In this document: in pieces, positions 6,145-57,203 of the stretch
Position numbering within the stretch: the first letter of the stretch is position 1
How the letters are laid out: every line of letters begins with the position of its first letter
Virus record (IMG/VR): IMGVR_UViG_2718218304_000001
Coordinates: 32,001-96,000 of that record
Length of the DNA stretch: 64,000 nt
Reading direction: 5' to 3' (one strand)
Source: a virus
Taxonomy: Duplodnaviria; Heunggongvirae; Uroviricota; Caudoviricetes
Translations under genes and position numbers: made by a program
The notes under the pieces: model-generated
The model's database searches: none
What the model was told of the DNA's origin: nothing
The model's input: only the letters and a program-made list of their open reading frames with translations

Positions 6145-6301
6145 AGTAGGCATTACTTCTTTGTAGTGAAAAGGGGCTTGATAGTAACAAAATGGCCTTA
6201 TGTCTGCCATGTGATAACAGCATTTCTCATAAATGATTAAATGTCGTAGCTGGAGTACACTACAAGGCGACAATTGCGCAAATTAAAATAAAGGAGACGG
6301 G

Positions 6302-7402
6302 ATGAGCGAGTCCAAATCGCCGGATGCCCTGAGAGCAATGGTAGCCGGTACGCTGGCTAATTTTCAGCACCCAACCCTGAAACACAACCTGACTACGCTT
6401 AAAGCGTTACACCATGTTGCGTTGATGGATGACACACTGCATGTCGAACTAATCATGCCTTTCGTGTGGAATAAGCCTTTTGAAGACCTGAAAGAGCAAT
6501 GTAGTGGTGATCTGCTCCGTATCACTGGCGCAAAGGCTATTGACTGGAAGCTGTCGTACAACATTGCCACGCTTAAGCGCGTCAAAAACCAACCAGGCAT
6601 TAATGGCGTTAAGAACATTATCGCCGTCAGCTCAGGCAAGGGCGGCGTGGGTAAATCCTCCACGGCGGTAAACCTGGCACTGGCGTTGGCTGCTGAAGGT
6701 GCGAAAGTTGGTATTTTGGATGCCGATATCTATGGTCCATCAATTCCAACCATGCTGGGCGCGGAAAACCAACGTCCAACCTCACCGGACGGTACTCACA
6801 TGGCACCTATCATGTCTCATGGCCTGGCAACCAACTCTATTGGTTATCTGGTCACCGACGACAATGCAATGGTGTGGCGTGGACCGATGGCCAGCAAGGC
6901 GCTGATGCAGATGTTGCAGGAAACTCTATGGCCTGATCTGGACTATCTCGTTCTCGATATGCCGCCGGGCACTGGTGATATTCAGTTGACGCTGGCGCAG
7001 AACATTCCTGTAACTGGTGCGGTTGTGGTAACTACGCCGCAAGACATCGCGCTGATCGATGCGAAGAAAGGCATTGTGATGTTCGAAAAAGTCGAAGTGC
7101 CGGTACTGGGTATCGTCGAAAACATGAGTGTGCATATTTGCAGTAACTGCGGTCATCACGAGCCAATTTTTGGCACCGGTGGCGCACAGAAACTGGCCGA
7201 GAAATACAACACGCAGTTGTTAGGCCAAATGCCACTTCATATCTCTCTTCGTGAAGATCTGGATAACGGAACACCAACCGTTATTAGTCGTCCAGATAGC
7301 GAATTTACGGCTATTTATCGTGACCTCGCAGATCGCGTTGCCGCCCAAATGTATTGGCAAGGTGAAGTAATACCTGGCGAAATCGCATTCCGCGCAGTGT
7401 GA
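6302..7402 (+). CDS. apbC: Fe-S cluster carrier ATPase ApbC/Mrp
   Basis: Contains GKGGVGKS P-loop and CxxC; near-identical to E. coli Mrp/ApbC from memory. Confidence 0.95.
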   Translation: MSESKSPDALRAMVAGTLANFQHPTLKHNLTTLKALHHVALMDDTLHVELIMPFVWNKPFEDLKEQCSGDLLRITGAKAIDWKLSYNIATLKRVKNQPGINGVKNIIAVSSGKGGVGKSSTAVNLALALAAEGAKVGILDADIYGPSIPTMLGAENQRPTSPDGTHMAPIMSHGLATNSIGYLVTDDNAMVWRGPMASKALMQMLQETLWPDLDYLVLDMPPGTGDIQLTLAQNIPVTGAVVVTTPQDIALIDAKKGIVMFEKVEVPVLGIVENMSVHICSNCGHHEPIFGTGGAQKLAEKYNTQLLGQMPLHISLREDLDNGTPTVISRPDSEFTAIYRDLADRVAAQMYWQGEVIPGEIAFRAV

Positions 7403-8530: not shown

Positions 8531-10093
8531 ATGAAAATGACAAGTATTCAACAACGTGCAGAGCTTCATCGCCAGATCTGGCAAATTGCTAACGATGTCA
8601 GGGGTTCAGTCGATGGATGGGATTTTAAGCAGTACGTTTTGGGCGCGCTTTTTTACCGTTTTATCAGCGAAAATTTTTCCAGTTATATTGAAGCCGGTGA
8701 TGACAGTATCTGTTATGCGAAACTGGATGACAGCGTAATTACTGATGACATTAAAGACGATGCCATCAAAACTAAAGGCTACTTCATCTACCCCAGTCAG
8801 CTTTTCTGCAACGTAGCTGCGAAAGCAAATACTAATGACAGACTGAATGCAGATTTAAACAGCATCTTCGTTGCTATCGAAAGTTCTGCTTACGGTTATC
8901 CTTCAGAAGCTGACATCAAAGGTTTGTTTGCTGATTTCGATACCACCAGTAACCGCCTGGGTAACACCGTTAAAGATAAAAATGCCCGCTTGGCTGCGGT
9001 TCTGAAAGGGGTTGAAGGGCTAAAACTTGGTGACTTCCATGAACATCAGATTGACCTGTTCGGTGACGCCTATGAGTTCCTGATTTCTAACTATGCGGCG
9101 AATGCCGGTAAGTCCGGCGGCGAGTTCTTTACACCGCAGCACGTCTCTAAGCTGATTGCACAACTGGCTATGCACGGGCAGACCCACGTTAACAAAATCT
9201 ACGACCCGGCAGCAGGCTCCGGTTCGCTGTTGTTGCAGGCGAAAAAACAGTTTGATGACCATATCATCGAAGAAGGTTTTTTTGGTCAGGAAATCAACCA
9301 TACGACCTATAACCTGGCGCGTATGAACATGTTTTTGCACAACATCAACTACGACAAGTTTGATATCAAGCTGGGTAATACACTGACTGAGCCGCACTTC
9401 AGAGATGAAAAACCGTTTGATGCCATCGTTTCTAACCCGCCGTATTCGGTGAAATGGATTGGCAGCGATGACCCGACGCTGATTAACGATGAACGTTTTG
9501 CCCCGGCTGGCGTTCTGGCCCCCAAATCCAAAGCTGACTTTGCGTTTGTATTACATGCGCTGAACTATCTTTCGGCCAAAGGTCGCGCTGCGATTGTCTG
9601 CTTCCCAGGCATTTTTTACCGTGGCGGCGCGGAGCAGAAAATCCGTCAGTATCTGGTCGACAATAACTATGTCGAAACCGTGATTTCACTGGCACCGAAT
9701 CTGTTCTTTGGCACCACTATTGCCGTCAATATTCTGGTGCTGTCTAAACATAAAACGGATACCAAAGTTCAGTTTATTGATGCCAGCGAACTGTTCAAAA
9801 AAGAGACTAACAACAACATTCTGACCGATGCTCATATCGAACAGATTATGCAGGTATTTGCCAGCAAGGAAGATGTTGCTCATCTGGCGAAATCTGTTGC
9901 GTTTGAGACTGTTGTCGCGAATGACTATAACCTGTCGGTGAGCAGCTATGTGGAAGCGAAAGATACTCGCGAAATTATCGATATCGCTGAGCTGAATGCT
10001 GAGCTGAAAACCACGGTCAGCAAAATCGACCAGTTGCGTAAAGATATTGATGCGATTGTTGCTGAGATTGAAGGTAGCGAGGTACAGGCATGA
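8531..10093 (+). CDS. hsdM: type I restriction-modification methyltransferase subunit HsdM (type IC, EcoR124I-like)
   Basis: NPPY motif ([10 protein letters not shown]) and AdoMet-binding DPAAGSGS; sequence matches my recollection of EcoR124I HsdM. Confidence 0.9.
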
Positions 10094-11337
10094 GCGAGCT
10101 GAGTTATCTGGAAAAACTGCTGGATGGGGCTGAGGTTGAGTGGGTAGCATTAAATAAATTAGCAACTTTTTTAAAAGGGAAGTCTTTACCTAAAGAAAAA
10201 ATAACTCCAGATGGCAATAGATATTGTATTCATTACGGTGAGCTTTTCACTCATTATGGTCCCATAATTGACAAAGTATGCTCAAAAACAAACCAAGCAA
10301 TCAATGAGTCAATTCTATCTGAAAAAAATGATGTTCTAATGCCAACGTCAGACGTTACACCAAGAGGTTTGGCTACAGCTAGTTGCATTCAAGAAAGTGG
10401 CGTTATTTTAGGCGGCGATATTTTGATTATTAGATGCTCTGGTGTTGATGGTAGATATCTAAGTAATTTCATAATAAATAACAAAAAAAAGATATTGCAA
10501 ATGGTTAAAGGTTCTACTGTTTATCATTTGTATGCTAAAGATATAGGTAAATTACTTATCCCCATCCCTTGCCCCAACAACCCGGAAAAGTCGCTGGCTA
10601 TCCAGTCTGAAATCGTCAGGATTCTGGATAAATTTACTGCACTTACCGCTGAGCTTACCGCTGAGCTTAGCATGCGTAAAAAACAATACAACTACTATCG
10701 CGACCAGTTGTTGAGTTTTAAAGAGGGTGAGGTTGAGTGGAAAGCTTTGGGGGAAATTGGTGAAGTTCGTATGTGTAAACGAATCCTAAAATCACAAACA
10801 TCTTCTGAGGGAGAGATTCCATTTTATAAAATTGGGACATTTGGTAAGGAACCCGATTCCTATATATCTAGAAAACTATTTAATGAATTTAAAGAAAAAT
10901 ATAGTTATCCTAAAGTTGGCGAAGTATTGATTTCTGCCAGTGGGACCATCGGCAGGACTGTTATATTTGATGGTAGGGAATCATATTTCCAGGATAGCAA
11001 TATTGTCTGGATTGAAAATAATGAAAAAATAGTTTTAAATAAATATTTATTCTATTTCTATAAAATAGCAAAATGGGGAATATCTGAAGGTGGAACTATT
11101 AAAAGACTTTATAATGATAACTTAAGAAAACTTATGATACCAGTACCATTTCCTGATTCTCCTGAAAGATCGCTAGTTGAACAACAAAAAATAGTGAAAT
11201 TACTGGATAAATTTGATGCTTTGACCAATTCCATCACCGAAGGTCTTCCGCGTGAAATCGAGTTGCGCCAGAAACAATACGAGTACTATCGTGATTTACT
11301 GTTCAGTTTTCCCAAACCTGAAACTATCAGTAACTAA
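10090..11337 (+). CDS. hsdS: type I R-M specificity subunit HsdS (type IC)
   Basis: ATGA start/stop overlap with hsdM; two AT-rich target-recognition domains around a conserved central region with a TAELTAEL repeat. Confidence 0.85.
10642..10668 (+). repeat. 12-bp tandem repeat x2 (CTTACCGCTGAG) in the hsdS central region, encoding TAEL-TAEL
   Basis: Read directly; this repeat number is known in the EcoR124I/II family to set the spacer length of the recognition site. Confidence 0.8.
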
Positions 11338-11458
11338 TTGACCATTGCTACCGACCGGATCACCTTAACATCCGGTCTATATAGAGACTATTTTTTACAC
11401 GCCGGAAGTCGCCCTTAAAGCCCTTCCGGCCCTTGCCAGACGGCACAAAGGATGCGCT

Positions 11459-14400
11459 ATGACTCATCAGACACACACCATTGCTGAATCCAATAACTTT
11501 ATCGTTCTTGATAAGTACATCAAAGCCGAGCAAACAGGCGACAGCTACCAGAGCGAATCGGACCTGGAACGTGAACTGATTCAGGATCTGCGGAATCAGG
11601 GCTATGAATTTATTTCCGTAAAATCTCAGTCGGCGATGCTGGCCAACGTTCGGGAACAGCTTCAGAACCTCAATGGTGTGGTGTTTAATGACAGCGAATG
11701 GCGGCGTTTCACGGAGCAGTATCTGGATAACCCGAGCGATGGCATCCTGGATAAGACCCGTAAAATCCATATCGACTATATTTGCGACTTTATTTTTGAT
11801 GACGAGCGTCTTGAGAACATCTATTTGATAGATAAAAAGAATCTCATGCGCAACAAGGTGCAGATTATCCAGCAGTTTGAACAGACGGGTTCTCATGCTA
11901 ACCGTTATGACGTCACGATCCTGGTTAATGGCTTACCGCTGGTACAAATCGAACTGAAAAAGCGCGGCGTGGCGATTCGTGAGGCCTTTAACCAGATACA
12001 TCGTTACAGCAAAGAGAGTTTTAACAGCGAAAATTCTCTGTTTAAGTATCTGCAACTGTTTGTCATTTCCAACGGCACCGATACCCGTTACTTTGCCAAC
12101 ACGACAAAGCGCGATAAAAACAGTTTTGACTTCACCATGAATTGGGCGAAATCAGACAACACGCTGATTAAAGACCTCAAAGACTTTACCGCCACCTTTT
12201 TCCAGAAACATACCCTGCTTAATGTCTTAGTGAACTACAGCGTATTCGATGTTAGCCAAACGCTACTGGTGATGCGACCGTACCAGATTGCCGCCACTGA
12301 GCGCATTCTGTGGAAAATTAAGAGTTCCTTTACAGCGAAGAACTGGTCAAAACCGGAAAGCGGTGGGTATATCTGGCACACTACCGGTTCAGGTAAAACC
12401 CTCACCAGCTTTAAAGCCGCGCGTCTGGCAACAGAGCTGGACTTTATTGATAAAGTCTTCTTCGTGGTCGACAGGAAAGACCTCGATTACCAGACCATGA
12501 ATGAATATAAGCGTTTTTCGCCAGACAGCGTCAACGGCTCGGAAAATACCGCAGGTCTTAAACGCAATCTGGATAAGGACGATAACAAAATTATCGTCAC
12601 CACTATTCAGAAACTTAATAACCTGATGAAAGCAGAAAGCGACCTGCCTGTATACAATCAGCAAGTGGTGTTTATATTTGATGAATGTCACCGCAGCCAG
12701 TTTGGAGAAGCGCAGAAAAACCTGAAGAAGAAATTCAAACGCTATTATCAGTTTGGTTTTACCGGCACACCTATTTTCCCGGAAAACGCCTTAGGCTCAG
12801 AAACGACCGCCAGCGTATTTGGTCGTGAATTGCATTCGTATGTAATTACCGATGCGATTCGTGATGAAAAAGTGCTCAAATTCAAGGTGGACTACAACGA
12901 TGTGCGGCCACAGTTTAAATCTTTAGAGACAGAAACCGACGAGAAAAAACTGAGTGCGGCTGAAAATCAGCAGGCATTTCTTCATCCCATGCGTATACAG
13001 GAAATTACGCAATATATTCTGAATAACTTCCGCCAGAAGACCCACCGTACTTTCCCAGGTTCCAAAGGCTTTAATGCCATGCTGGCAGTGAGTAGCGTGG
13101 ATGCCGCGAAAGCCTATTACGCGACGTTTAAACGGTTACAAGAGGAAGCAGCTAATAAATCGGCTACCTATAAACCGCTGCGTGTTGCAACAATCTTCTC
13201 CTTTGCCGCCAATGAAGAACAAAATGCCATTGGTGAAATTTCCGATGAAACTTTTGATACCAGCGCAATGGACAGCAGTGCTAAAGAGTTTCTTGACGCT
13301 GCAATTCGTGAGTATAACAGCTATTTTAAAACTAACTTCAGCACCGACAGTAACGGTTTTCAGAACTACTATCGTGATTTAGCCCAACGGGTTAAAAATC
13401 AGGATATCGATCTGTTAATTGTCGTTGGGATGTTTTTAACCGGCTTCGACGCTCCAACATTGAACACGCTATTCGTCGATAAAAACTTGCGTTTTCACGG
13501 CCTGATGCAGGCATTCTCCCGTACCAACCGCATTTATGACGCTACTAAAACCTTCGGTAACATCGTCACTTTTCGGGATCTGGAACGCTCAACCATTGAT
13601 GCCATAACGCTGTTTGGTGATAAAAATACTAAAAATGTGGTGTTAGAAAAGAGTTATGCTGAGTATATGGAAGGCTTTACAGATGCTGCCACTGGTGAAG
13701 CTAAACGCGGCTTTATGGCAGTAGTTTCAGAACTGGAACAACGGTTCCCTGACCCTGCCAGTATTGAAAGTGAAAAAGAGAAGAAAGACTTCGTAAAACT
13801 GTTTGGTGAATACCTGCGTGCCGAGAACATCCTGCAAAACTATGATGAATTTGCCACGCTGAAAGCCCTGCAACAAATCGATCTTAGCGATCCTGTTGCG
13901 GTAGAAAAATTCAAAGCAGAACATTATGTGGATGATGAAAAGTTCGCTGAATTGCAAACAATTCGTCTCCCTGCTGAACGCAAGATTCAGGATTATCGTT
14001 CTGCCTATAACGATATTCGCGACTGGCAGCGCCGTGAGAAAGAAGCTGAGAAAAAAGAGAAATCAACCACTGACTGGGATGACGTAGTTTTTGAGGTCGA
14101 TTTGCTGAAGTCTCAGGAAATAAACCTGGATTATATCCTTGGACTGATTTTCGAACACAACAGACAAAATAAAGGCAAGGGCGAAATGATCGAAGAGGTC
14201 AAACGCTTAATTCGTTCAAGCCTGGGGAACCGGGCGAAAGAGGGCCTGGTGGTCGATTTTATTCAGCAAACGAACCTGGATGATTTACCAGACAAAGCCA
14301 GTATCATTGAGGCATTCTTTACGTTTGCTCAACGCGAACAGCAACGTGAAGCAGAAGCATTGATAAAAGAAGAAAATCTCAATGAAGAGGCGGCGAAACG

Positions 14401-14575
14401 CTATATTCGCACGTCTTTAAAACGCGAATACGCCACCGAAAATGGCACAGAATTAAACGAGACATTACCAAAACTTAGTCCGTTAAACCCGCAATATAAA
14501 ACGAAAAAACAGACCGTTTTCCAGAAAATCGTCACGTTTATTGAAAAGTTCAAAGGAGTAGGTGGGCAGATATAG
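11459..14575 (+). CDS. hsdR: type I R-M restriction subunit HsdR (helicase-nuclease)
   Basis: 1038 aa; Walker A TGSGKT and DECH box; only a 120-nt gap after hsdS. Confidence 0.9.
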
Positions 14576-39209: not shown

Positions 39210-41549
39210 TTACTCTTCTACTGACTCGGTGGGGTTGTCTTTTGCTCTTCGGTCGTCGATTGCCTGCAAAGCCGCAATGATTTCAGCCAGTGGCTTCTCC
39301 CGATACATCTCGACGATCTGCGATTTGGTGTATTTCTTGTCACCAATTTCAACTCGCCCGCTGGCGTTCTTTGGCAGGTATCCTTCTTCCAGCATGTACT
39401 CGACGAGCGATTCGATAACGTCGAGGCCACGAGTAGGATCGAAGTAGAATTTCCAGGTGCATTTGCCATACGGTGGTGCAACTTTGTTTTTGATGCATTC
39501 TGCGCCTACGTCCTGGCCGATCTTCTCTTTACCATCCTTCATCACCGATGCACCAAGACGGATACGTACAGAAGCGTAGAACTTCGGTGAATCTCCACCT
39601 GGCGACGTAGTAGGGTCGCCAAACATTACACCGATTTTTGTGCGAACCTGATTCAAGAAGATGATGCAGGCGTTGTATTTGCGTGCCCACAAAGCCAGAG
39701 TAGGGAAGTTCGCACTCGTCGCACGAGCCAGTGCCGTATTGTCGTTCATGTTTAGCTGATCTTTGTCTTTGGCAGTGCCTTCAGCCATCTTTTCGAACTT
39801 CTCGGCTTTGGAGTTCGGAACCATAGACGCAAGAGAGTCAGCCACGATACAGATAGGTGCTGATTCGGGGATAAGCTCTTCATCACGAACCAATTTAAGT
39901 ATTGTGCCGATCAACTCTACAGAGTCTTCGAAGGTATCTGGCTGCTTGTATACCCACTGACCGTCGTCTTCGTCGGCGTTCAGTCCGTTCGCTACCGCCA
40001 GACCAACGTCGAAACTGTTTTCGTGGTCAAGGAATACGGCCAGACCATCCTGTTTTTGTGCTGACACCATCGCAGCCGTCGCGAGGAATGTGTTGTGGCT
40101 GATAATCCCGTTAGACCAGAAAGAGTGTGTTTCCGGCATCGCTACGTCGAACGTTGGTGCTTCACCTTCCTCAATAGCCACGACTTCGTCGTAGAACAAG
40201 TTAGAGTCAATTACCGCTGCCAGTTGTGCAAACAGATGCTCGTTAAAACGATTCTTTCTGCCAATGAAGGAGACATAGATTTCTCGCAGTTTGTCTATTC
40301 CGACACGATCGCCGCGGCCAATAACGTGATCTACCAGAACGTAGTCTTTACGAGAGGTCTTGGTGAGTGACTCGTAGAGTGATTTCACTAAGCCGCTGAT
40401 GTGCGGAACGTAGCCTAAATAAGTGCGGTCAAAACTAATGTCCCGTTTGGTTGCCACTGCTAAACGAGCCGGAGACTCGAACCCAATCGTTGACAGGAAA
40501 AGGTCGTAGTTAGAGCCACTGAATGACAGCCGGTAATATATGTTTTTATAACCTGCGACGTGTTTTTCAGAGATAGTTGACGTAATCCCCAGATTCAGGA
40601 GCATGAGGCGAATTTGCTGTAGCAGCAGCCCACTCGCGCTCACAACCTCAATGCAGCGACCATCATTGACGTGGCATTCCAGCTCAAAGTAGCCGCGAAG
40701 GAATGCAATTTGAGCCTCGCTATTGGCGCGACGCACACTCAACGGAACCTGCTTGCCAGCAGCTTTCTCATACTCCAGACCATATTCTTTAAAAAGCAGC
40801 GAACGCACCTCTTTGCTAAACAGCACATGGTCTTCCGAGCCGTTATGTTTTCTCGTAACTGGCATCTTGTCTGATACCAGCGAAATGAGGCGGTAGTACT
40901 CATCCTTGATGAAAGGATCTGTGTTAGAAAAATTCACTGAATTTTCAGAGGCCACGTATCCGTCAGCAATTAAATAGCCCATCAGTTTTGCGATATTGGC
41001 ATCCAGGTGCTGATCGCCGAATTGATGTGTGCCAACCATTGAAGGAATCGTGTCGCCTACACTGATTTTTTCAGCATGTCGCCAGACGACATTACCTAAG
41101 TCGTCAACCACACGGATTGGGTGACGGAACGTAGCCTCGATATAACCGCCTGATGCCAGCTTAATACGCTTGAATTTGCGACGGTTGTTCCATGTCAGGT
41201 GTGAGGTCTTCTCTATCACGCCATTTTCATTGATGAGTCCAACGTTATGCTCTACATCGCGAGTAGTGCATGTCGCTTTGTACCCTTCAATCTCAAACAA
41301 CTCTTTCACTGTTACCATTCCACGCTCCGTCAGCAGCATGGTGTCTGCGGTAACACATTTCCCCGCGCTTGGTGGCCCGAATACTTCTACGATACGACCA
41401 CATGGGAAACCGCCATCGTAACGACCGGAAATAGCTTTGTTTAACGGAGGAAAGCCTGTGTCAATCCAATGAGTTACTTTCTGAATTTCGTCGTTGCTAC
41501 CGATTTTCTTTTTCAGAGCAAGTGCCAGTGCGGATTTTCCTTTTGCCAT
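39210..41549 (-). CDS. RecA/UvsX-like recombinase interrupted by an intein
   Basis: Exteins total ~357 aa and read GRIVEVFGPPSAGK|T...FLNQVRTKIGVMFGDPTTSPGGDSPKFYASVRIRLG, paralleling RecA (GRIVEIYGPESSGKTT...[32 protein letters not shown]). Confidence 0.8.
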   Translation of the reverse strand: MAKGKSALALALKKKIGSNDEIQKVTHWIDTGFPPLNKAISGRYDGGFPCGRIVEVFGPPSAGKCVTADTMLLTERGMVTVKELFEIEGYKATCTTRDVEHNVGLINENGVIEKTSHLTWNNRRKFKRIKLASGGYIEATFRHPIRVVDDLGNVVWRHAEKISVGDTIPSMVGTHQFGDQHLDANIAKLMGYLIADGYVASENSVNFSNTDPFIKDEYYRLISLVSDKMPVTRKHNGSEDHVLFSKEVRSLLFKEYGLEYEKAAGKQVPLSVRRANSEAQIAFLRGYFELECHVNDGRCIEVVSASGLLLQQIRLMLLNLGITSTISEKHVAGYKNIYYRLSFSGSNYDLFLSTIGFESPARLAVATKRDISFDRTYLGYVPHISGLVKSLYESLTKTSRKDYVLVDHVIGRGDRVGIDKLREIYVSFIGRKNRFNEHLFAQLAAVIDSNLFYDEVVAIEEGEAPTFDVAMPETHSFWSNGIISHNTFLATAAMVSAQKQDGLAVFLDHENSFDVGLAVANGLNADEDDGQWVYKQPDTFEDSVELIGTILKLVRDEELIPESAPICIVADSLASMVPNSKAEKFEKMAEGTAKDKDQLNMNDNTALARATSANFPTLALWARKYNACIIFLNQVRTKIGVMFGDPTTSPGGDSPKFYASVRIRLGASVMKDGKEKIGQDVGAECIKNKVAPPYGKCTWKFYFDPTRGLDVIESLVEYMLEEGYLPKNASGRVEIGDKKYTKSQIVEMYREKPLAEIIAALQAIDDRRAKDNPTESVEE
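40092..41357 (-). mobile_element. intein (422 aa) with LAGLIDADG homing endonuclease, inserted in the P-loop of the RecA-like gene
   Basis: Starts with Cys right after GPPSAGK, ends ...IISHN followed by Thr; internal LMGYLIADGYV and FLRGYFELECHV blocks. Confidence 0.75.
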
Positions 41550-46048: not shown

Positions 46049-46326
46049 TTCAACGCTGATGATCCTCATTTCTACAATAACGAAGACGGTGTAAGCCTGA
46101 GTGGATAGATTTGTAGGATTGTACAAGTTGAATAAATTAGCATGGTAAGGCCATGCTAATTAAATCGACACAACGGCCAGTTTATTCCATAAAAGTGAAT
46201 TGCCCATTGTGGCGAAATGCGGGGTTGCCGCATGAATAGTCAAAGGCAGAAGCTAACTGCCGGCATGGCAAAACAAAGTGCGTAAGAGGAGTGACTTCCT
46301 CAACAAGCGCCATAATTCTTTATAAA

Positions 46327-46350
46327 CCCGCCAACAGGCGGGTTTTCTTT
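46327..46350 (+). terminator. rho-independent terminator (CCCGCCAACAGGCGGG + TTTTCTTT)
   Basis: Perfect hairpin plus T-run between the csp gene and the 3' end of the polymerase gene. Confidence 0.6.
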
Positions 46351-46351
46351 A

Positions 46352-49300
46352 TTACTTATTTATTGTCTCCGCGATATCAGCCAGAATGGCCTCCAGTCGC
46401 TCTCCTTCTTCCGGTCGGAAGTACAGGATATTCGGGTTAAATCCGTAGAAGACGGTTGCATCAAGCTCTGGGAAGTACTCCTTACGACCAATCAGATCTG
46501 ATGGTTTACTCTTATTGTTAAATAGTGCGGTTGAACGACTACCACACGTCAAAATGTAGGTTGGTCGTACAAGATTAATTTCTTCCCGCATAAAGTCTGT
46601 GAACTGGCCTATCTCGTCTTTGGTATAGTCTTTCTCTTTGTCCTTAACCTTCTTACAAACACCCGTGACATAAAGATCGCCCATGCGCAGATCTCCAACT
46701 GTCAGTAGTTTTGCCTTAAAGTCGTCGTATCCGTTCTCCATGAAGTAGCCGGTACGAGCGTCATTGCCGTTCGCATTGTCCAGAATGATCATGATTTTGG
46801 GTTTAATACCAATAGTCGGGCGTATCAACTCCTCACCCAAGCCCATTTCATCCGCCATACGTGTCATGAGTACGTTGATTTCGGCAGAACGCTTAGGATT
46901 CATTTCGAACGGACGTGATGCTTTAACAGCGTCAATGATGAGATTGCCCATCAGCTCAGCCTGGTCGCGCAGTCGTTCAGGATCAGTTGCTGGCAGACTG
47001 CCTGGCTCAATTGACGCAAAAGCCCCTACTTTATGAAGCGACTCGCGTACACGACTGTTACATGCACGCTTCTCGACCGCTTCATCGAATTGTGCCACTG
47101 ACTCGAATTTGCCACCAACTTTCTCACGCGCACGCATAATTGCCTGACAACCATTTTCAGAACAGCCTTTCACAGCAGAGAATGGCGCATACAGTGCCTG
47201 ACTGCCGTCTTCGAGTGTGCGGATCTCAATTCGGTTAGATGACACATTAACGTCTGGTGGCAATACGCGAATGCCATAGGTCAGCGCATCCTTCACCAGC
47301 CCCTGATGCTTATCCTCGCCCAGAATGGTGAGCGCAGCTGCGAAGAACTCAGCAGGGTAGTGCGTCTTTAGCCACATAGACTGATAACTGATTAAAGAAT
47401 AAGCAACGGAGTGTGATTTATTGAAGGCATATCCACCGAACTTCTCAAAGGCGTCCCATATTTCTTGGGCTTTTTCCTTACTGAGACCTTCTTGTTCAGA
47501 GACGATCTCCACGTAGTCTATGCCGTCACTAATAGCCTCGCTGTAGCTTCTACGCTTACCGTCTGAGCAATCCAGTTTTGCGTGTTTGTGAACCTCTACA
47601 GTACCTCCATTTTTGAGTGACAGTGTCACCCAGCCTGCTTGTGCTCGTTCTACAAAATCGCTGCCGATCGCTTTCATCTTATCCATGTTCTTTTTACCGA
47701 TAGCGGAACGCAGAGCGTCTGCTTCGGCCATAGAGAACCCGGCAAGTACTCGGGAACTTTGCATGATTTGTTCCTGATAGAGCAAAACACCATTAGTCTC
47801 CCGGGTGACTTCCTCAAGACGCGGATGAATTGAATGTGGAGCCATGAAGCCTTTGGCCACGGAGACATAGTCGTCCAACATGCCGGATTGGATCGGGCCA
47901 GGTCGGAAGAGTGCGGTCGTGGCGACAACGGTTTTAAAGCTCATTGGCTCAATGCCACCGCCTAGATCTTTAAGCAGCTTGCGCATGGGGCCGGACTCCA
48001 GCTGGAATACGCCCTGTGTATACCCTGCAGCAAAACCATCCAGCACCTTGCGATCTTCAAGAGAAATGGCATCAAGATTGATATCTTCACCTGTGTTCTC
48101 TTTTATGTAGCGTTTTGCACTATCGAGCAAATCGAGAGTTGCCAGGCCAAGCACGTCCAGCTTAATTAGGCCCATAGCCTCGCAGTAACGCTTATCAAAT
48201 GCGATACAACGCGCGTCACCACGGCGCTCAACCGGTGTACGTTCTGTCAGAGGAACACCTGCTACAATCATCCCTGCCGCATGTCTACCAAAGCCACGCA
48301 TAAGGCTTTGTAACTTGCAGGCTGCATTGAATGCATCAGGATATTTTGTTGCGTATTTGTCGAGACTTGCCAGTTGTTCGCGCAGCTCTTCCAATGGAAG
48401 GCTATCATCCTCGACGTTCTTCAGTTCTTTTGATACCGCCATATCTGCGGACTCCACACCATAAATACGAGCGGTGTCACGTAGTGCAGAGGCTGCGCCC
48501 AGGTAGGTGAAGTTCGGAATGCCTGCAACGTAATCTTCGCCGTAGCGTTCATTCAGATACTCGATCACCTCATGGCGACGTGCCTGGCTGAAGTCCAAAT
48601 CCGCATCTGGCAAGTCGAGACGCTCAGGGTTGATGAAACGTTCAAACAGAAGACCGTGACGGATAGGGTCGACGTTGGTTATGCCTATGCACCATGCCAC
48701 CAAAGAGCCAGCGGAGGAACCACGACCAGGCCCGACAGGAATGCCAGTTTCACGGCTGTGATTCATCAGATCGCGTACCATCAGGAAGTAACCACAAAAT
48801 CCCAGGCGAGTAAGCGTGTCCATTTCGTACTTAAGTCGCTCAACATAAACCCTGTTCTCAGAAGCCGGTGGTGTGTATCCAAACTCTTTTGTGGTAAGAC
48901 GTTTACGCAGCCCTGCAACAGCCAGTTTCATCAGCGTTGCAGGTTCGTCGTCTGCCATCTTGGGCAGTGCTGGTGGCAATTCATGCCAGCGCCATGTACA
49001 GGCTTCGATAATGGAGTCCTGCGTTGTTGAGGCCATTGCAGCTGTTACCGGCACATCCATGCGAACGGAGAAGGCTTTAAGCGCCTCAAGGAGATGGCGG
49101 CGACCATTGACGGCGTTATCTCGCTGGTGGGGTATACGCAGACGATGCGGCTGGTCGATTTTTATGTTGTTCGTAACCATGTGCGCAATGTCTTTAATGT
49201 CTGCATCGTCGATCGATTCGTAATAAGCGGGATAGAACGCTACTGGCTCTATTTTCAGTGCGCTGGCTACTTTCATCGCTCGGACGTTAATCTGGTCGTA

Positions 49301-49858
49301 GAATGGGGTAGGGTGCGGATAAACCACGCTATAGAAGTTGTCTTTCCCGCCCGCTGTAATCAGTGAGCTTATGATTTTTGCAAAATCGTTGCGTTGGAAC
49401 ACGCTACCGATGTCGGAAGTGAGCAGGATGATGTTGCCTTTGGCATATGTAGAAACCAACTGTTCGAGCGAGAGACGCGGTACAAAGTAGAACTGTTCTC
49501 GTGTGTTGGCCACCGTCATTAGTTCGCAGATGTCGCGATATCCTTGCTCATTTTTAATTAGAGCGGTAAACGAGTAGTTACGTCCCCGCTCTAATGATTC
49601 CATACATCTCATAGATTCTTTAGCAAGTTTAGCCCGGTGCTCGTATGTGGGATCATCAACGATATTTAGTTTCACACCACAAATAACCGCCATGTCGTCA
49701 CCAGCGGCACGTTGTAGTGGAATAACACTCGCAATATTCATGCTATCTGCTGAAATTACAGCGGTGTAGCCAGCTTCTCTGGCAATCTTCACCGCGTTTT
49801 CTGCTTTTAGAGCCGACTCCCCAAGTGAGAAGTCAGTTCGAACCATCAGTGCTTTCAT
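46352..49858 (-). CDS. DNA polymerase III alpha-type (DnaE-like) replicative polymerase with PHP domain
   Basis: GPGRGSSAGSLVAWCIGIT and FNKSHSVAYSLISYQSMWLK signatures; the C-terminal ~190 aa does not resemble the host DnaE C-terminus. Confidence 0.85.
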   Translation of the reverse strand: MKALMVRTDFSLGESALKAENAVKIAREAGYTAVISADSMNIASVIPLQRAAGDDMAVICGVKLNIVDDPTYEHRAKLAKESMRCMESLERGRNYSFTALIKNEQGYRDICELMTVANTREQFYFVPRLSLEQLVSTYAKGNIILLTSDIGSVFQRNDFAKIISSLITAGGKDNFYSVVYPHPTPFYDQINVRAMKVASALKIEPVAFYPAYYESIDDADIKDIAHMVTNNIKIDQPHRLRIPHQRDNAVNGRRHLLEALKAFSVRMDVPVTAAMASTTQDSIIEACTWRWHELPPALPKMADDEPATLMKLAVAGLRKRLTTKEFGYTPPASENRVYVERLKYEMDTLTRLGFCGYFLMVRDLMNHSRETGIPVGPGRGSSAGSLVAWCIGITNVDPIRHGLLFERFINPERLDLPDADLDFSQARRHEVIEYLNERYGEDYVAGIPNFTYLGAASALRDTARIYGVESADMAVSKELKNVEDDSLPLEELREQLASLDKYATKYPDAFNAACKLQSLMRGFGRHAAGMIVAGVPLTERTPVERRGDARCIAFDKRYCEAMGLIKLDVLGLATLDLLDSAKRYIKENTGEDINLDAISLEDRKVLDGFAAGYTQGVFQLESGPMRKLLKDLGGGIEPMSFKTVVATTALFRPGPIQSGMLDDYVSVAKGFMAPHSIHPRLEEVTRETNGVLLYQEQIMQSSRVLAGFSMAEADALRSAIGKKNMDKMKAIGSDFVERAQAGWVTLSLKNGGTVEVHKHAKLDCSDGKRRSYSEAISDGIDYVEIVSEQEGLSKEKAQEIWDAFEKFGGYAFNKSHSVAYSLISYQSMWLKTHYPAEFFAAALTILGEDKHQGLVKDALTYGIRVLPPDVNVSSNRIEIRTLEDGSQALYAPFSAVKGCSENGCQAIMRAREKVGGKFESVAQFDEAVEKRACNSRVRESLHKVGAFASIEPGSLPATDPERLRDQAELMGNLIIDAVKASRPFEMNPKRSAEINVLMTRMADEMGLGEELIRPTIGIKPKIMIILDNANGNDARTGYFMENGYDDFKAKLLTVGDLRMGDLYVTGVCKKVKDKEKDYTKDEIGQFTDFMREEINLVRPTYILTCGSRSTALFNNKSKPSDLIGRKEYFPELDATVFYGFNPNILYFRPEEGERLEAILADIAETINK

Positions 49859-50042
49859 GTGTTTTTACCTTTATGGTTTTTTTGATTTTGTCATTGGGGA
49901 AGCCTACGAACTTCCCATACATCGAAATCGCAACTTCTTTTGCTGATTGGTGACAATCGGGCTTGTCTGGACATACCAGACAAGCCTTACCAGTTTCAGA
50001 AGCCGCGATAAGAGAGCCGAAACATCCTTTACGCACGATCAA
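49833..50042 (-). CDS. small Cys-containing hypothetical protein
   Basis: 69 aa with several Cys; overlaps the polymerase start by 26 nt. Confidence 0.25.
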   Translation of the reverse strand: MIVRKGCFGSLIAASETGKACLVCPDKPDCHQSAKEVAISMYGKFVGFPNDKIKKTIKVKTHESTDGSN

Positions 50043-51274
50043 CCAAATATTTTTTGAACAACTTCACGAGCCGCTTGTGCAGAAGCTGAAGGGAGTTTGT
50101 TAATGAAAGAACGCTCAATACCTGTCACAAAGTCGCCTCGCATCATTCCAATCTTGGCCGACAACAAAAGTTCACGAGGGCCAATTGGCTGACTGATAAG
50201 GTGTTCTTCGTATCCATCGCGAACGATACCGGCAAACTTAACCATCTTTTCTGCGTATTCATCCACGATGCCGGCATTTATCAACATGTTGATCTCTGCC
50301 TCTTTGCTCATGTATTTCACATTCGAAACGATGCCAAAACGCGAAAAGTTCGCGGCGTTCTGGATGTTTGTACCCTGGTACAAGCCGGTTTCATCACCAG
50401 ATCCGTTCGTGTTGCCAGTGCCAATGAAAGCAAACCGGTCATGCGGAGTAATGCGACGCCATTCTGGAGTCGCCTCTTTGATGACCAACGCTTCACCTTC
50501 CAGCACTGGCTGATACACGCCAAGAATCTGTGGAAACGCAAAGTCGTATTCATCCGCGAGGTAAACCCAGCCATGCTTCATTGCGAGCGCAAGCAAGCCA
50601 GGCTCGAAATACGTAGAGCCATCACGCGCCAGAATTTGCCCCGTAACATGTGCCTCTTCCATTGATGCTGTATGTTGGGCACGGATCAACGGACGATTGA
50701 GCAAAGCACATAGCTGTGTAGGCAATGTCGATTTGCCTGTTCCTGCATGACCCCACAAATAGCCAGGTATGCCAAGTTCAAGCATCATGAAAATATCTTT
50801 GATCAGTTCGAAGTCGCCATATACGTAGCCCTTCTTCACTTCTGGAACGAACTCTGGATACGGCGTATTGACGTTGACGCTAACCATGAGCGGCGTCCCA
50901 CGTTTTGTTCCGAGTTCTTCCACCGTTACGTTTAGCAGTTCGTGAGCTGCGACCAGATCTGTCTTGTACTCAACTGTGCCTGTGTAGCCAGGGCTACTGG
51001 TCAAGCCAGAAGATTTGGCCATTTCGCTTTTTTGCTCGGCACGTTTAGCTTGAATTGCATCAAGTGCCTTTTTCGATAGCGTTGGTTCATCTGGAAACTG
51101 CGTTGTGTACATTTTCAGTACGGTGTCAGGATCGGCATCTTTTACTGACTCAGGAATGCCCTCGCAATTACCATTGGCTACATGGGACTTAAAATAGTGA
51201 AATGATTTGCCGCACCACTTGCAAACAAGGTAATCAGAATGATTTTTTTCATTTTGCAGTGCAGTAGTCGTCAT
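50039..51274 (-). CDS. MoxR/CobS-like AAA+ ATPase with N-terminal Cys motif
   Basis: Walker A GHAGTGKST, Walker B-like YLADEYD. Confidence 0.6.
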   Translation of the reverse strand: MTTTALQNEKNHSDYLVCKWCGKSFHYFKSHVANGNCEGIPESVKDADPDTVLKMYTTQFPDEPTLSKKALDAIQAKRAEQKSEMAKSSGLTSSPGYTGTVEYKTDLVAAHELLNVTVEELGTKRGTPLMVSVNVNTPYPEFVPEVKKGYVYGDFELIKDIFMMLELGIPGYLWGHAGTGKSTLPTQLCALLNRPLIRAQHTASMEEAHVTGQILARDGSTYFEPGLLALAMKHGWVYLADEYDFAFPQILGVYQPVLEGEALVIKEATPEWRRITPHDRFAFIGTGNTNGSGDETGLYQGTNIQNAANFSRFGIVSNVKYMSKEAEINMLINAGIVDEYAEKMVKFAGIVRDGYEEHLISQPIGPRELLLSAKIGMMRGDFVTGIERSFINKLPSASAQAAREVVQKIFG

Positions 51275-51369
51275 GCGTTTTTCCTTTGTTCTCTAATGAG
51301 CGTTCAACTTCTTATATAAATATACCATTAACTATCGTAAGTAGTTACTTATCATCAAGGCTGTTTTAT

Positions 51370-53478
51370 TCACTTCAAAATGATACGAGATAGTTCAGTA
51401 ACTACAGATGAACCAAGACTATCAACGCTCGTTACCAGGGCATGATTTGAGTAAAATCTCTCCGGTGCGTCAGTCATGATGCCAATTGCCATCAAATCAA
51501 TGTCAGTCTGCGTTTCAATTTGCTTCGCAACCGAACGCAAATGAGCGTCAAAACCTCTCCCAACAGCCCACGGCTCGCCATCGCTCAGAACAAGCATGAT
51601 CTTCCTGTCCTCCATGCGACCGGAAAATAACGATGCAAGGCTGGCTATGCTTTCACCATCCACGTTATTAAGAAGTGGGAATGTGTAGCCTACGCACCCC
51701 ATACGTGAGCGAACTTCGCGAGAATTTACCTTTTCATTCCAATTTTTGATGATAGGTAGCATTAAAGATTCAAAGCGAGAGAACTCATACTTGACAGCCT
51801 TAAGTTCTCCTGCCGCCATATGACTACCAAATGTAGTGAAGCCGGTGATAATGTTGGGAACATTTATTCGATCAAGGGCATCGGCGATGGTATATGCACT
51901 TGCAAGAGCCAATTGTATCGTTATACCCCTCATTGAACCTGATAAATCAATCACTTGTTGAACACAGGCGTTAACGGCTTTAGATTCTTCTTTTTTACGA
52001 AACACGCGATCATCATTCATTGCTAATCTGTAGATACTAGAACCATGAATGCGCCCCCGACGCTGGCCCGGTATAAACTGAACTCTGTTTCTGCTTGCTA
52101 TTGCTCGCTCCAGGTCTTTTGCCAGCGTCGACGAAACACCTGACGAAAGATGCTTTTCAATATATTTGTCGAAGAGCTGGTTGCCTTCAGGAACGATGCG
52201 ATAGCGGCTGATTGGACATCCTCCTAAATCAATATCGGAGAATGTTTTAATAAGCCGTTTGATATGGGCTTCTGCCTGATCAATCGAGCCGATGAAGTCG
52301 TATGAGCGATTGTATGGCCTGTATTCGCTTTTCGAGCTTTCTGTTAACTCGCTTTTAATCGTTTCGGATAGAGCATCTTCTGTCATGCCTCCGACTTCAT
52401 CTTCTATGCTATCCAGCTCCTCTAAAGCCTCTTCCAGACTCATTTTTGACGGAGTTGGGATATCTGAAGAGCCGTCTTCTGTCGTTTTTCTTTTTTCGTG
52501 GTCAGCGGTAAATGATTCTGACACCGCGTTATCAGAAGCATCAGAATCTGATACCTCTTTATCATTTTCTGTATCATCGAATATTGTTTCTGATGATTCA
52601 GAATTATCTGAATCATCATCGTCGTTATTATCATGTTTGTGCTTACTGTGTGATTCTGATTTGATAGATTTGTGATTATCTAACGCTGAGGGTGTCTCAT
52701 GATCTTCGTTGTCTTCATTGTTTTCTCCAGAGGCATCCGTCTGGTCAGCGTCTGAAGGATCGGAAGTTTTTCCCGGAGCTGACTCCTTACCTTTGCTTTC
52801 ACTTTCACTGTCTTTGAGGATCTTAGCTATGATCGCAGCCACCTTTACACAATCCTCGGTGCAAGACATGTTACGCACGGCCACATCGATACCATGTTCT
52901 TTTAATAATGAAATTGGTTTCTCAATGACAGGCCAATATTCATCCATGAAATCTACGAACGGTGCTTGGCCATCCCAGGCTCTTACAACCGGACAGAGAA
53001 AGAAGTTTAGAAAAAGCGCGCGCTGATCTTTGCCACAATAAGCAATAGCCTCTGAAGCCTTTGGTTTAAAGACTTTTTCGATTATAAGGCGCTGAGTTGC
53101 CATCAGATTACGTCTTGTTCCGTTAAAGACCTGACCCATTTTTCGCTCGATGAACACGTCTTCTAAGGCATTCCATAGCGACCAGGAAGGAACGCGTCCT
53201 TTTTCTCTCATTTTGTTGGACACACGAATATCGGTAAACAAAATGTGAGCAACCTCATGATCGAGAAATCCGCGCACAGCATTCATCAATGCCGGTGTTG
53301 CGTTATCCGGGATTGATGGGATGTTTACGAGAATTGGCTCTCCATCATCGTTATAGCGTACATAAGCGTCGTCCCCTCGTTCTGCAACAGGGATGTTTTT
53401 ACCTGAAAGGAGAGCGACTACTCGTTTTACACTGTCACGGAAGTCCTGAACCTCTTTGATGGAACGTTTTTTAGACAT
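51370..53478 (-). CDS. CobT-like protein with C-terminal von Willebrand A domain and acidic low-complexity linker
   Basis: MIDAS-like DLSGS motif near the C-terminus; long Asp/Ser/Glu-rich middle segment. Confidence 0.55.
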   Translation of the reverse strand: MSKKRSIKEVQDFRDSVKRVVALLSGKNIPVAERGDDAYVRYNDDGEPILVNIPSIPDNATPALMNAVRGFLDHEVAHILFTDIRVSNKMREKGRVPSWSLWNALEDVFIERKMGQVFNGTRRNLMATQRLIIEKVFKPKASEAIAYCGKDQRALFLNFFLCPVVRAWDGQAPFVDFMDEYWPVIEKPISLLKEHGIDVAVRNMSCTEDCVKVAAIIAKILKDSESESKGKESAPGKTSDPSDADQTDASGENNEDNEDHETPSALDNHKSIKSESHSKHKHDNNDDDDSDNSESSETIFDDTENDKEVSDSDASDNAVSESFTADHEKRKTTEDGSSDIPTPSKMSLEEALEELDSIEDEVGGMTEDALSETIKSELTESSKSEYRPYNRSYDFIGSIDQAEAHIKRLIKTFSDIDLGGCPISRYRIVPEGNQLFDKYIEKHLSSGVSSTLAKDLERAIASRNRVQFIPGQRRGRIHGSSIYRLAMNDDRVFRKKEESKAVNACVQQVIDLSGSMRGITIQLALASAYTIADALDRINVPNIITGFTTFGSHMAAGELKAVKYEFSRFESLMLPIIKNWNEKVNSREVRSRMGCVGYTFPLLNNVDGESIASLASLFSGRMEDRKIMLVLSDGEPWAVGRGFDAHLRSVAKQIETQTDIDLMAIGIMTDAPERFYSNHALVTSVDSLGSSVVTELSRIILK

Positions 53479-53576
53479 GGCTAATCCTTTGTTATGAAAA
53501 CAAATTATTTACTAGTGTGTTTAATGTAGCACTGCGCGAACAGGGAACTAAGCCATTCGCGCAGGGAGAAGAGGGG

Positions 53577-53789
53577 TTAACAGATTCTGACGGCTAAAGA
53601 CCAGGAGCCGGTATTGAGAAGCGTGAAGCGTTTGTTGTTAAGTTCGAATATAAAGCCAGTTGTGTCATTCACACCAACCTGAATCTGCTCATTCGGTAGA
53701 TCGGTGAGGATGTCAGCTACACACTCATCAGCTAATTTCTGTACGTGTCCGATCTCAAGAGCGATTAGGCTGGAAATAGTGGTGTTCAT
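53577..53789 (-). CDS. hypothetical small protein
   Basis: ORF track only. Confidence 0.3.
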   Translation of the reverse strand: MNTTISSLIALEIGHVQKLADECVADILTDLPNEQIQVGVNDTTGFIFELNNKRFTLLNTGSWSLAVRIC

Positions 53790-56549: not shown

Positions 56550-56636
56550 TGGCGGAGAGTAATGGAATCGAACCATCATCGCTTGCGCAATGGGACGGTT
56601 TTCAAGACCGCTTGAGCACCATGCTCCCTACTCTCC
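56550..56636 (-). tRNA. tRNA-Ser (anticodon UGA), long variable arm
   Basis: Hand-folded: acceptor GGAGAGT/ACTCTCC, anticodon loop CUUGAAA, T-loop TTCGATT, encoded CCA; D-arm is atypical. Confidence 0.5.
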
Positions 56637-56956
56637 AGCTATTGTGATGGTCGGTGCTGAACTCCGACACAGGGTTGTAGCAAGCCCCGCAAAGCGCGCA
56701 CTACTGTAGTTGCGGCACATCAGCCTGTGCATTCATCACAACGGTAAGATCACTACCTTTCGACCAGTCATTGTGCACATGAACGACGATTAACCGTAAT
56801 GATCTTATCGTTGTGTTGTGAAGCCAGATGCTTATCTTCTGGTTGCTTCAAAGAGCTGCACTTCCTCACAACGGTAAGAGCACTGGTCTGACTCTATCGA
56901 TTTACGGGCTTGTGGGTCAGTATCGCCGATTCGCCCAATGCTCTTACCTGTTGTGT

Positions 56957-57032
56957 TGGTGCCGGTTAACGGGATCGAACCGCTGACATCCTGCTTACAA
57001 GGCAGACGCTCTACCAACTGAGCTAAACCGGC
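56957..57032 (-). tRNA. tRNA-Thr (anticodon UGU)
   Basis: Hand-folded: acceptor GCCGGTT/AACCGGC, D-arm GCTCAGTTGGTAGAGC, anticodon loop CUUGUAA, T-loop TTCGATC, CCA. Confidence 0.7.
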
Positions 57033-57036
57033 AATT

Positions 57037-57123
57037 TGGTGGGGAGTGATGGAGTCGAACCACCCGAGTCGCAATGACAGTAGATTTACAGTCTACCCCG
57101 CTGCCCCTACGGACTAACTCCCC
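57037..57123 (-). tRNA. tRNA-Tyr (anticodon GUA), long variable arm
   Basis: Hand-folded: acceptor GGGGAGT/ACTCCCC, anticodon loop CUGUAAA, T-loop TTCGACT, CCA. Confidence 0.6.
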
Positions 57124-57128
57124 TAAAT

Positions 57129-57203
57129 TGGCGATGGTGGGTGGATTCGAACCACCGACCAGTTGGTTAACAGCCAACTGCTCTACCGCTGAGCTACACC
57201 ATC
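57129..57203 (-). tRNA. tRNA-Asn (anticodon GUU)
   Basis: Hand-folded: acceptor GATGGTG/CACCATC, D-arm GCTCAGCGGTAGAGC, anticodon loop CUGUUAA, T-loop TTCGAAT, CCA. Confidence 0.7.

Follow-up and report, generated by a model that had tools for sequence, protein, structure and literature searches.

The stretch of DNA analysed here, 64,000 nucleotides (nt) from positions 32,001 to 96,000 of IMG/VR record IMGVR_UViG_2718218304_000001 (hereafter the window, in whose coordinates all positions are given), is part of an SSU5-like phage-plasmid, and the region considered shares 99% identity with Escherichia phage Cyrano and 74% with Salmonella phage SSU5. Two adjacent genes on the minus strand are the subject of this report: one (51370..53478; cobT for short) encodes a CobT-like protein of 702 amino acids (aa) composed of an N-domain with a zincin motif, an acidic linker, a shaft and a von Willebrand factor A (vWA) domain with a MIDAS (metal-ion-dependent adhesion site), and the other (50039..51274; cobS) encodes a CobS-like, MoxR-class AAA+ ATPase of 411 aa. 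They stand in an array headed by orf70 (53577..53789, minus strand; 70 aa), which diverges from a helix-turn-helix repressor gene on the opposite strand. The pair is followed by orf69 (49833..50042, minus strand), whose 69-aa product is a small protein with four cysteines, and by dnaE (46352..49858, minus strand), the last gene of the array and a linked neighbour outside the pair, which encodes a 1168-aa Pol III alpha-type replicase with matches to the Pfam PHP, DNA_pol3_alpha, finger and HHH_6 domains. Also upstream of the array are a gene for an integrase and a cluster of tRNA genes. The open reading frame (ORF) listing places the ORFs of 69, 411, 702 and 70 aa, all on the minus strand, exactly where the original prediction, which proposed an AAA+ ATPase and vWA protein pair with flanking small genes, had put them.

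The junctions within the array are tight. The start of orf69 is overlapped by the cobS stop and orf69 in turn overlaps the dnaE start by 26 nt, such that orf69 is translationally coupled to both neighbours, and good Shine-Dalgarno sequences precede cobT, cobS and dnaE. A GC-rich hairpin just past the dnaE stop (46324..46345) is a candidate end of the transcription unit; its stem is palindromic, and the scan calls it terminator-like on the plus strand only, where the T-run lies. No comparable terminator-like site was found on the minus strand from 53789 to 46352, save a weak one inside dnaE, and the promoter and terminator scan as a whole did not rise above shuffled expectation. With no such internal site found, and with orf69 overlapping its neighbours on either side, co-expression of the pair with the phage DnaE replicase is probable. 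Between orf70 and cobT (53532-53564, minus strand), CTGCGCGAA...TTCGCGCAG is an inverted repeat of 9 bp around a 15-nt loop; no T-run follows the repeat, which could form an RNA hairpin or serve as an operator.

A CobS-Like Motor with a Probable N-Terminal Finger

The 411-aa protein matches phrog_249 and Pfam AAA_5 (E-value 2.1e-15), and over residues 142-411 of its sequence it aligns with the solved Brucella CobS (4.6e-26). Its AlphaFold (AF2) model, with a predicted local distance difference test score (pLDDT) of 86, superposes on the MoxR-class proteins NorQ and CbbQ with template-modelling (TM) scores of 0.85-0.88, and fold and sequence thus agree with the MoxR/CobS-like AAA+ identity first proposed. 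The AAA+ core (aa 142-411; 50042..50851, minus strand) holds a Walker A motif at G175-S182 (50729-50752), a Walker B motif at D241/E242 (50549-50554), sensor-1 N288, arginine finger R312 and sensor-2 R367. Viral K181, D241/E242, N288, R312 and R367 align with G71-S78, D141/E142, N186, R210 and R271 of Brucella CobS, whose catalytic residues were defined in the structural study of CobSTN (bioRxiv 10.64898/2026.07.21.739949). These residues are invariant across an alignment of 24 CobS-like homologues, 17 of which match CbbQ_C. No CobS_N (PF12556) is listed among the families that the same 24 proteins match, whereas cellular CobS encoded beside cobT has both CobS_N and AAA_5.

The viral N-terminus begins differently. 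The cysteine motif noticed there at the outset is present (C18-x2-C21...H31...C37) and, by its sequence, is likely a Ros/MucR-type zinc finger (aa 14-60; 51095..51235, minus strand) that replaces CobS_N, with C18, C21 and H31 as ligands and C37 as the probable fourth. The family consensus, KIxCxxCGxxxHxIxxHLKxxH...YxxxYPDAP, has the Ros/MucR ligand spacing CX2CX9HX4H, and a profile of 18 N-termini returned Ros (2jsp) as its top PDB match at 5.6e-4 with the ligands in register. ROS_MUCR (PF05443) was the commonest Pfam match, found in 11 of the 18 N-terminal fragments (best E-value 1.7e-5), all of them under the gathering score of 25.4 bits. Across 113 full-length homologues, 71 have the canonical CX2CX9HX4H arrangement, 25 (the window protein among them) have cysteine as fourth ligand, and eight have aspartate for the second cysteine, a variant also seen in Mesorhizobium Ros homologues. 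The finger is modelled confidently (pLDDT 76-93) and is joined to the rest of the ATPase by a disordered stretch at aa 89-99, and would likely bind DNA. The CobS proteins of cyanophages and of Vibrio phage ICP2 align only from about residue 115-142 onwards, and their N-terminal extensions differ and have no cysteine motifs.

A CobT-Like Adaptor with a Zincin Motif in Its N-Domain

The 702-aa protein matches phrog_1576, Pfam CobT_C at 4e-82 (275 bits against a gathering score of 21) and Pfam CobT at 3e-27 (96 bits against 26.1), and its residues 440-697 match the solved CobT 9uka_G at 6e-17. With the DLSGS motif at residues 511-515 (51934-51948), these matches bear out the CobT-like vWA identity that had been suggested. 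The shaft and vWA domain (aa 441-702; 51370..52158, minus strand) carry MIDAS residues D511, S513, S515, N605 and D633, which align with D422, S424, S426, N518 and D546 of Brucella CobT; all five are invariant among diverse relatives and the shaft segment is conserved too. In Brucella CobT it is this segment that inserts in the CobS ring (bioRxiv 10.64898/2026.07.21.739949). Upstream of the shaft, the Asp/Ser/Glu-rich linker of the original prediction was found at aa 226-380 (52339..52803, minus strand), where it is presumably disordered and has 49 acidic against 13 basic residues (net charge -36). It differs in length from relative to relative, the whole protein measuring 649 to 790 aa among them, and a homologue search with full-length CobT was swamped by close relatives differing in linker length. 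The linker of cellular CobT, also disordered, has about 90 residues (bioRxiv 10.64898/2026.07.21.739949).

The N-domain (aa 1-225; 52804..53478, minus strand), which is the part matched by Pfam CobT, has a putative M48-like zincin fold: it resembles M48 zincins, and the authors of the CobSTN study describe CobT_N as M48C-like (bioRxiv 10.64898/2026.07.21.739949). In the window protein it carries the zincin motif HEVAH (aa 74-78; 53245..53259, minus strand), with N103, E106, D107 and E111 after it. Searched exhaustively with the N-domain alone, 1.8 billion cluster representatives (50% clusters) yielded 1151 relatives. The best 150 of these include 127 full-length proteins, of which 126 have G-x-x-D-H-E-x-x-H and all 127 have DxSxS. 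Adding ICP2 CobT and the 'peptidase' that cyanophage S-RSM4 encodes beside cobS to the alignment leaves H74, E75, H78, N103, D107 and E111 without variation, and E106 is invariant in one N-domain alignment and nearly so in the other. In two cellular CobTs, recognized as such by a preceding cobS with CobS_N and read from genome loci with frameshifted gene calls, S-M-A-L-R is aligned at the position of the viral H-E-x-x-H. Cellular CobT_N was not found in the PDB by N-domain sequence search, whether with a single sequence or a profile, and a search seeded with the Brucella vWA domain returned only N-terminally truncated CobT calls.

Because the zincin site is complete (H74-E75-x-x-H78 plus E106/E111), the viral N-domain is probably a working zinc metallopeptidase, or at least a zinc site. 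As judged from these alignments, the viral site is intact and under selection, and real CobT is a dead zincin. The best PDB match of the N-domain profile was the anti-CRISPR protein AcrIIA26 (9zq6_B, E-value 0.0015), over the segment NxxEDxFIE...G (profile positions 91-140; window aa ~100-150), and may be due to chance.

Conserved Association with Replication Genes

Linkage was counted in 80 related IMG/VR loci retrieved with the CobS alignment, which are near-identical and SSU5-like and hence inform on linkage, not on diversity. The order int-rep-orf70-cobT-cobS-orf69-dnaE is fixed in these loci (cobT in 80, cobS in 80, dnaE in 79), with cobT, cobS, orf69 and dnaE linked in 78-80 of the 80, and in each of the relatives examined the pair has dnaE directly downstream. 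Relatives with a CobS identity of only 35-46%, namely metagenomic elements of ~100 kb, Pseudomonas phage ZY21 and Rhizobium phage RHph_N1_10, retain a core of cobT, cobS, small genes, dnaE, gp32-type single-stranded-DNA-binding protein, 5'-3' exonuclease and RecA. In two of the distant relatives DnaE has a C-terminal uracil-DNA-glycosylase (UDG) domain (PF03167; L083 12387-15809, L085 11739-15083); the window DnaE has a C-terminal extension of similar length, with no UDG match at E <= 0.01.

The pair also stands among replication genes in phages with other polymerases. Vibrio phage ICP2, a podovirus with PolA, has CobT and CobS, two small ORFs, and then primase, helicase and PolA. In the T4-like phages S-RSM4 and an Ochrobactrum jumbo phage, which use PolB, gp47 and gp46 precede the pair, and the gp45 clamp and gp44/62 clamp loader genes follow it. 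In a Cobavirinae phage the pair adjoins DNA polymerase and primase/helicase genes; the name of this group was considered as a reference to cobalt chelatase, wrongly, since it comes from a cobalamin-dependent ribonucleotide reductase (RNR). For the T4-like adaptor, which has no Pfam match, we confirmed only the zincin motif and DWSGS, and its vWA assignment is taken from the literature (Iyer et al., 2021).

The same authors proposed that the homologous MoxR-vWA-metallopeptidase pair of T4-like jumbo phages is a virion-assembly chaperone with a processing protease, by analogy with the MoxR/vWA pair of Acidianus two-tailed virus, and a protease joined to a chaperone would indeed suit morphogenesis. 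The structural genes of Cyrano, however, occupy 0.1-28 kb, and the pair is part of the block for replication and recombination, at 43-46.6 kb, just as it stands among the replication genes of ICP2, T4-like and Cobavirinae phages; moreover, a finger of DNA-binding type would be unexpected on a capsid or tail chaperone. We consider an assembly role very unlikely for the pair in the window.

Another candidate role is that of a maturation chaperone of MoxR type that does not proteolyse its client, in the manner of NorQ/NorD, CbbQ/CbbO and CoxD/CoxE, and which would insert metal into, or reactivate, a phage replication or nucleotide enzyme, with HExxH having no more than a structural or metal-handling part. 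As clients, the DnaE PHP domain, class Ia RNR and SbcCD come into question. The paradigm for MoxR-vWA systems is the insertion of metal or the remodelling of enzymes, NorQ and CbbQ are the closest structural relatives of the ATPase, and the pair adjoins DnaE here, and gp46/47 and clamp genes in T4-like phages; further, the Cyrano annotation includes NrdAB and a glutaredoxin encoded by the phage. Yet the metal-insertion adaptors CobT, NorD and CbbO need no zincin site, which cellular CobT has lost, and the near-universal viral H-E-x-x-H with its downstream glutamate is best explained by catalysis. Nor is there a single client common to SSU5-like, ICP2-like and T4-like phages. On balance, a purely chaperoning function seems unlikely to us.

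Both small genes flanking the pair are real rather than chance ORFs, since they belong to PHROG families and recur across the related loci. The product of orf69 matches phrog_6337 at 2e-44, corresponds to SSU5_051 and is found in 78 of the 80 loci at 81-100% identity. Its N-terminal motif, GC[FY]GS...CxxC...C (GCFGS in the window), is homologous to the start of 167-180-aa proteins which the metagenomic relatives, Pseudomonas phage ZY21 and the Rhizobium phage encode between cobS and dnaE, immediately upstream of the latter. The orf69 product is a truncated member of this conserved family and is probably a factor associated with the polymerase. Some of the distant relatives have a gene for a sigma-70-region-2-like protein between cobS and the orf69-family gene (L083 11182-11856; L088 10209-10844), which is not the case in the window. 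The product of orf70 matches phrog_2627 at 1e-39 and corresponds to CYRAN_46; the gene is present in 75 of the 80 loci and absent from SSU5. To judge from identities of 43-97%, against 77-100% for cobS in the same loci, it is fast-evolving. Pfam gave no convincing match for orf69, orf70 or the longer relatives of orf69, and a DNA_pol3_beta match to orf70 (E 0.07) was dismissed as noise.

The position of the pair at the start of the array, beside a repressor gene and behind a fast-evolving small gene, would also befit an effector of host takeover or anti-defence, that is, an early AAA+ and protease pair that removes nucleoid silencers, restriction or immune proteins, with the finger and the acidic, DNA-like linker directed at DNA-binding host factors. 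The N-terminal extension of the ATPase varies by phage lineage, as is expected of targeting modules, and Ros/MucR proteins are described as H-NS-like silencers, with which a Ros-like finger could compete. Counter-defence genes, however, are typically variable and accessory, and both large genes are strongly conserved core genes, cobS being 77-100% identical across the group and belonging to the core set in cyanophages as well. A PADLOC scan gave no convincing match, and the similarities to ArdC and AcrIIA26 are marginal. We regard this role, too, as unlikely. The related suggestion that the pair might form the core of a conflict system found no support: three of the four proteins had no match in PADLOC-DB, and the one match of the fourth, to DrmE in the CobT linker region, was marginal (E 0.0027, 14 bits), such that a known defence system was rejected for want of a usable match.

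Relationship to Cobalamin Synthesis

Phage records label both large genes 'porphyrin biosynthesis protein', and in the Cyrano record (OV696614) CYRAN_47 and CYRAN_48, which correspond to 50039-53478 of the window, are named 'cobalamin synthetase' and 'dimethylbenzimidazole phosphoribosyltransferase'. The latter names are wrong, as they belong to the unrelated CobS (cobalamin synthase, 'final step') and CobT (dimethylbenzimidazole phosphoribosyltransferase) of Salmonella nomenclature, a confusion that is also found in the literature (PMC11288001; PMC1079782). On the usual annotation the pair would be an auxiliary metabolic gene set, with genuine CobS and CobT hijacking host CobN to boost B12 synthesis during infection (Liu et al., 2021). 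In its favour, the motor, shaft and vWA domain are homologous to CobS and CobT throughout, the role has been proposed in print, and some phages with CobST infect B12 producers (cyanobacteria, Rhizobium, Pseudomonas).

The scores argue otherwise. Against the NCBIfam equivalog models, the 411-aa protein reaches 87.2 bits on TIGR01650 (CobS; cut-off 558.55) and the 702-aa protein 75.5 bits on TIGR01651 (CobT; cut-off 759.05) and, with scores so far below the cut-offs, neither viral protein is an orthologue of a cobaltochelatase subunit. Clear orthology of that kind, unaccompanied by linkage to the neighbours, is thus not what was found, the equivalog scores being low and the neighbours tightly linked. 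By published accounts, Escherichia coli salvages cobinamide and has no corrin-ring synthesis, and hence no substrate for the complex; it makes B12 only when given heterologous cobN, cobS and cobT with the rest of the pathway. The annotation of Cyrano, from which the absence is read given its 99% identity to the window across the region concerned, lists no CobN and no B12-dependent enzyme, its RNR being the class Ia NrdAB. The misfit was remarked as early as 2005 by the discoverers of cyanophage cobS, who noted that phage RNRs are class I, leaving the B12 rationale unclear. In PLSDB, 1012 plasmids carry a CobT-like gene; most belong to Klebsiella, Escherichia, Acinetobacter, Enterobacter, Yersinia and Salmonella, with Yersinia pestis plasmids among them, and the carriage of the pair by more than 1000 enterobacterial and Acinetobacter plasmids counts against B12 synthesis. 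The same is true of the protease motif, kept in viral CobT and lost in real CobT, and of the zinc finger in place of CobS_N, and much of the published claim is built on the Salmonella-nomenclature confusion. We therefore consider a contribution to B12 synthesis highly improbable.

Additional Features of the Window

Several other genes of the window merit mention. A complete type I restriction-modification system (HsdM, 520 aa; HsdS, 415 aa; HsdR, 1038 aa) lies at 8531-14575 on the plus strand; none is listed at the corresponding place in the Cyrano annotation, and it looks like defence cargo specific to the phage-plasmid variant of the window. A 779-aa RecA homologue (39210-41549, minus strand) has an intein inserted in it, and the intein carries a homing-endonuclease domain of LAGLIDADG type (Pfam Intein_splicing, LAGLIDADG_3, RecA). 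A full-length methionyl-tRNA synthetase gene (4111-6273, minus strand) adjoins one for an Mrp/NUBPL-type iron-sulfur-carrier P-loop ATPase (6302-7402, plus strand), annotated MinD in Cyrano, and together these are unusual cargo for a phage-plasmid. The tRNA cluster (56550-57203, minus strand) comprises four genes, Ser-TGA, Thr-TGT, Tyr-GTA and Asn-GTT, of which Cyrano annotates three, without Tyr, and SSU5 only tRNA-Asn in the stretch examined.

Discussion

The explanation that we favour, without going so far as to call it probable, is that the pair, a virus-type, CobS/CobT-like machine of motor and adaptor and not a cobaltochelatase, serves in phage DNA replication as a remodelling protease driven by ATP and tethered to DNA. 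By homology with the solved Brucella CobST, six CobS-like AAA+ subunits would assemble into a ring, on which one or two CobT-like subunits would dock via the N-domain, with the shaft entering the pore. The Ros/MucR-type finger, one per ATPase subunit and each on a flexible tether, would probably anchor the ring to DNA. The MIDAS face of the vWA domain may then capture a protein bound at or near replicating DNA by one of its acidic residues, and ATP hydrolysis in the ring would pull or remodel the captured protein through the adaptor, for the zincin domain to cleave. The outcome would be the assembly, activation or clearance of a replication-associated complex. That the machine should cleave something is suggested by its intact zincin site, that the ring should be held on DNA in this lineage by the Ros-type finger, and that the client should be a replication-associated protein by the probable co-transcription with the replicase together with the recurrent replication context.

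Several observations weigh against this explanation. The two histidines are missing from the Pseudomonas phage ZY21 protein and from one further representative, and catalysis is therefore dispensable in some lineages. True CobT has an acidic linker and a vWA domain as well, so that neither discriminates. The ROS_MUCR matches are sub-gathering and the finger of the window protein has a cysteine, not a histidine, as its presumed fourth ligand; in addition, cyanophage and ICP2 CobS have no finger, so DNA tethering cannot hold for viral CobST at large. The T4-like partner has diverged so far that nothing but its HExxH region aligns. Synteny among SSU5, Nickievirus and Rhizobium phages may reflect common descent from a single old lineage in place of functional coupling, and phage 'early' genes of any function cluster with replication genes.

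A bolder version would have it that viral cobS and cobT, spread over T4-like cyanophages, ICP2-like podoviruses and more than 1000 SSU5-like phage-plasmids of Enterobacteriaceae and Acinetobacter, are in no sense metabolic and encode a hitherto unrecognized replisome accessory, in which an AAA+-driven zincin protease strips and cleaves a DNA-bound protein to let phage replication go forward, with a Ros-finger DNA tether in the SSU5 group. The pair would then be the viral counterpart of p97-SPRTN/Wss1, and cellular CobST the derived form in which the protease was inactivated. Taken as a whole, this version strikes us as improbable, if worth stating.

Parts of this picture are already known. The gene pair itself has long been annotated, and the MoxR-vWA-metallopeptidase reading was published for T4-like phages (Iyer et al., 2021). 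In the literature searched we found neither the contrast between a live viral and a dead cellular zincin, nor the Ros/MucR finger on the ATPase, nor the argument for replication from three polymerase families, and no paper was found in which the function of either phage CobS or phage CobT had been studied by experiment. Lists of auxiliary metabolic genes have included phage 'cobS' since 2005, and marine T4-like cyanophages have it among their core genes. If the explanation favoured here holds, viromics studies which count cobS and cobT as B12 metabolism, several of them also mixing the pair up with the unrelated Salmonella proteins, mis-assign them, and a widespread, conserved step of phage DNA replication is still undescribed. 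The solved CobSTN structures provide an exact template for trap and point mutants, and make the question testable in a tractable E. coli phage-plasmid.

Comparison with Known Systems

The nearest relative is the Brucella CobSTN complex (PDB 9ujv, 9uka; bioRxiv 10.64898/2026.07.21.739949), which is like the viral pair in its AAA+ core, in the identity of the catalytic residues and in being encoded, as regards CobS and CobT, by two adjacent genes. Brucella CobT also has the same layout: its M48-like N-domain is followed by a disordered, acidic linker and a shaft, and then by the vWA domain, where five residues make up the MIDAS. The two systems share only about 30% identity, however, and the viral protein has HExxH where cellular CobT has SMALR, and the viral ATPase the Ros-like finger where cellular CobS has CobS_N. 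Gene order is reversed (cobT then cobS in the virus, cobS then cobT in cells) and, whereas cobaltochelatase has CobN and a corrin pathway, the viral pair has neither an annotated CobN nor a host corrin pathway.

Among viruses, the pair of T4-like cyanophages and jumbo phages, and CobT and CobS of ICP2, likewise set a CobS-like ATPase beside a protein with HExxH...NxxED...E among replication genes, as in the window. ICP2 CobT also has CobT_C, in contrast to the T4-like adaptor with its want of any Pfam match. Their ATPases bear other N-terminal extensions in place of the finger, and the polymerases concerned are PolB and PolA, not DnaE.

Other likenesses concern single components or the logic of the whole. 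NorQ/NorD and CbbQ/CbbO share with the viral pair the succession of motor, adaptor and client, and a vWA/MIDAS adaptor, but NorD and CbbO have no zincin domain, neither pair has a DNA-binding module, and the clients are nitric oxide reductase and Rubisco. Ros/MucR proteins share the CX2CX9HX4H spacing and flanking residues with the family consensus of the finger, but are stand-alone regulators, where the viral module of about 50 residues is fused to an AAA+ ATPase. The AAA_5 modules of Midasin/Rea1 match the viral ATPase at 1e-11. In Midasin six AAA_5 modules form a ring, which is joined by a long linker rich in Asp and Glu and by a MIDAS domain, at the C-terminus, that takes hold of assembly factors and pulls them off. 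Functionally this is the layout of CobS6 plus CobT; Midasin is, however, a single giant eukaryotic polypeptide that works on pre-ribosomes and has no peptidase domain. Lastly, FtsH, and p97/Cdc48 with SPRTN/Wss1, resemble the proposed machine by analogy only, as ATP-driven unfoldases joined to an HExxH protease: homology of the protease goes no further than the zincin fold, and the motor is of another AAA+ clade. Of these, p97-SPRTN acts on DNA-bound proteins during replication, which is the kind of task that the viral pair, on the explanation favoured here, may perform.

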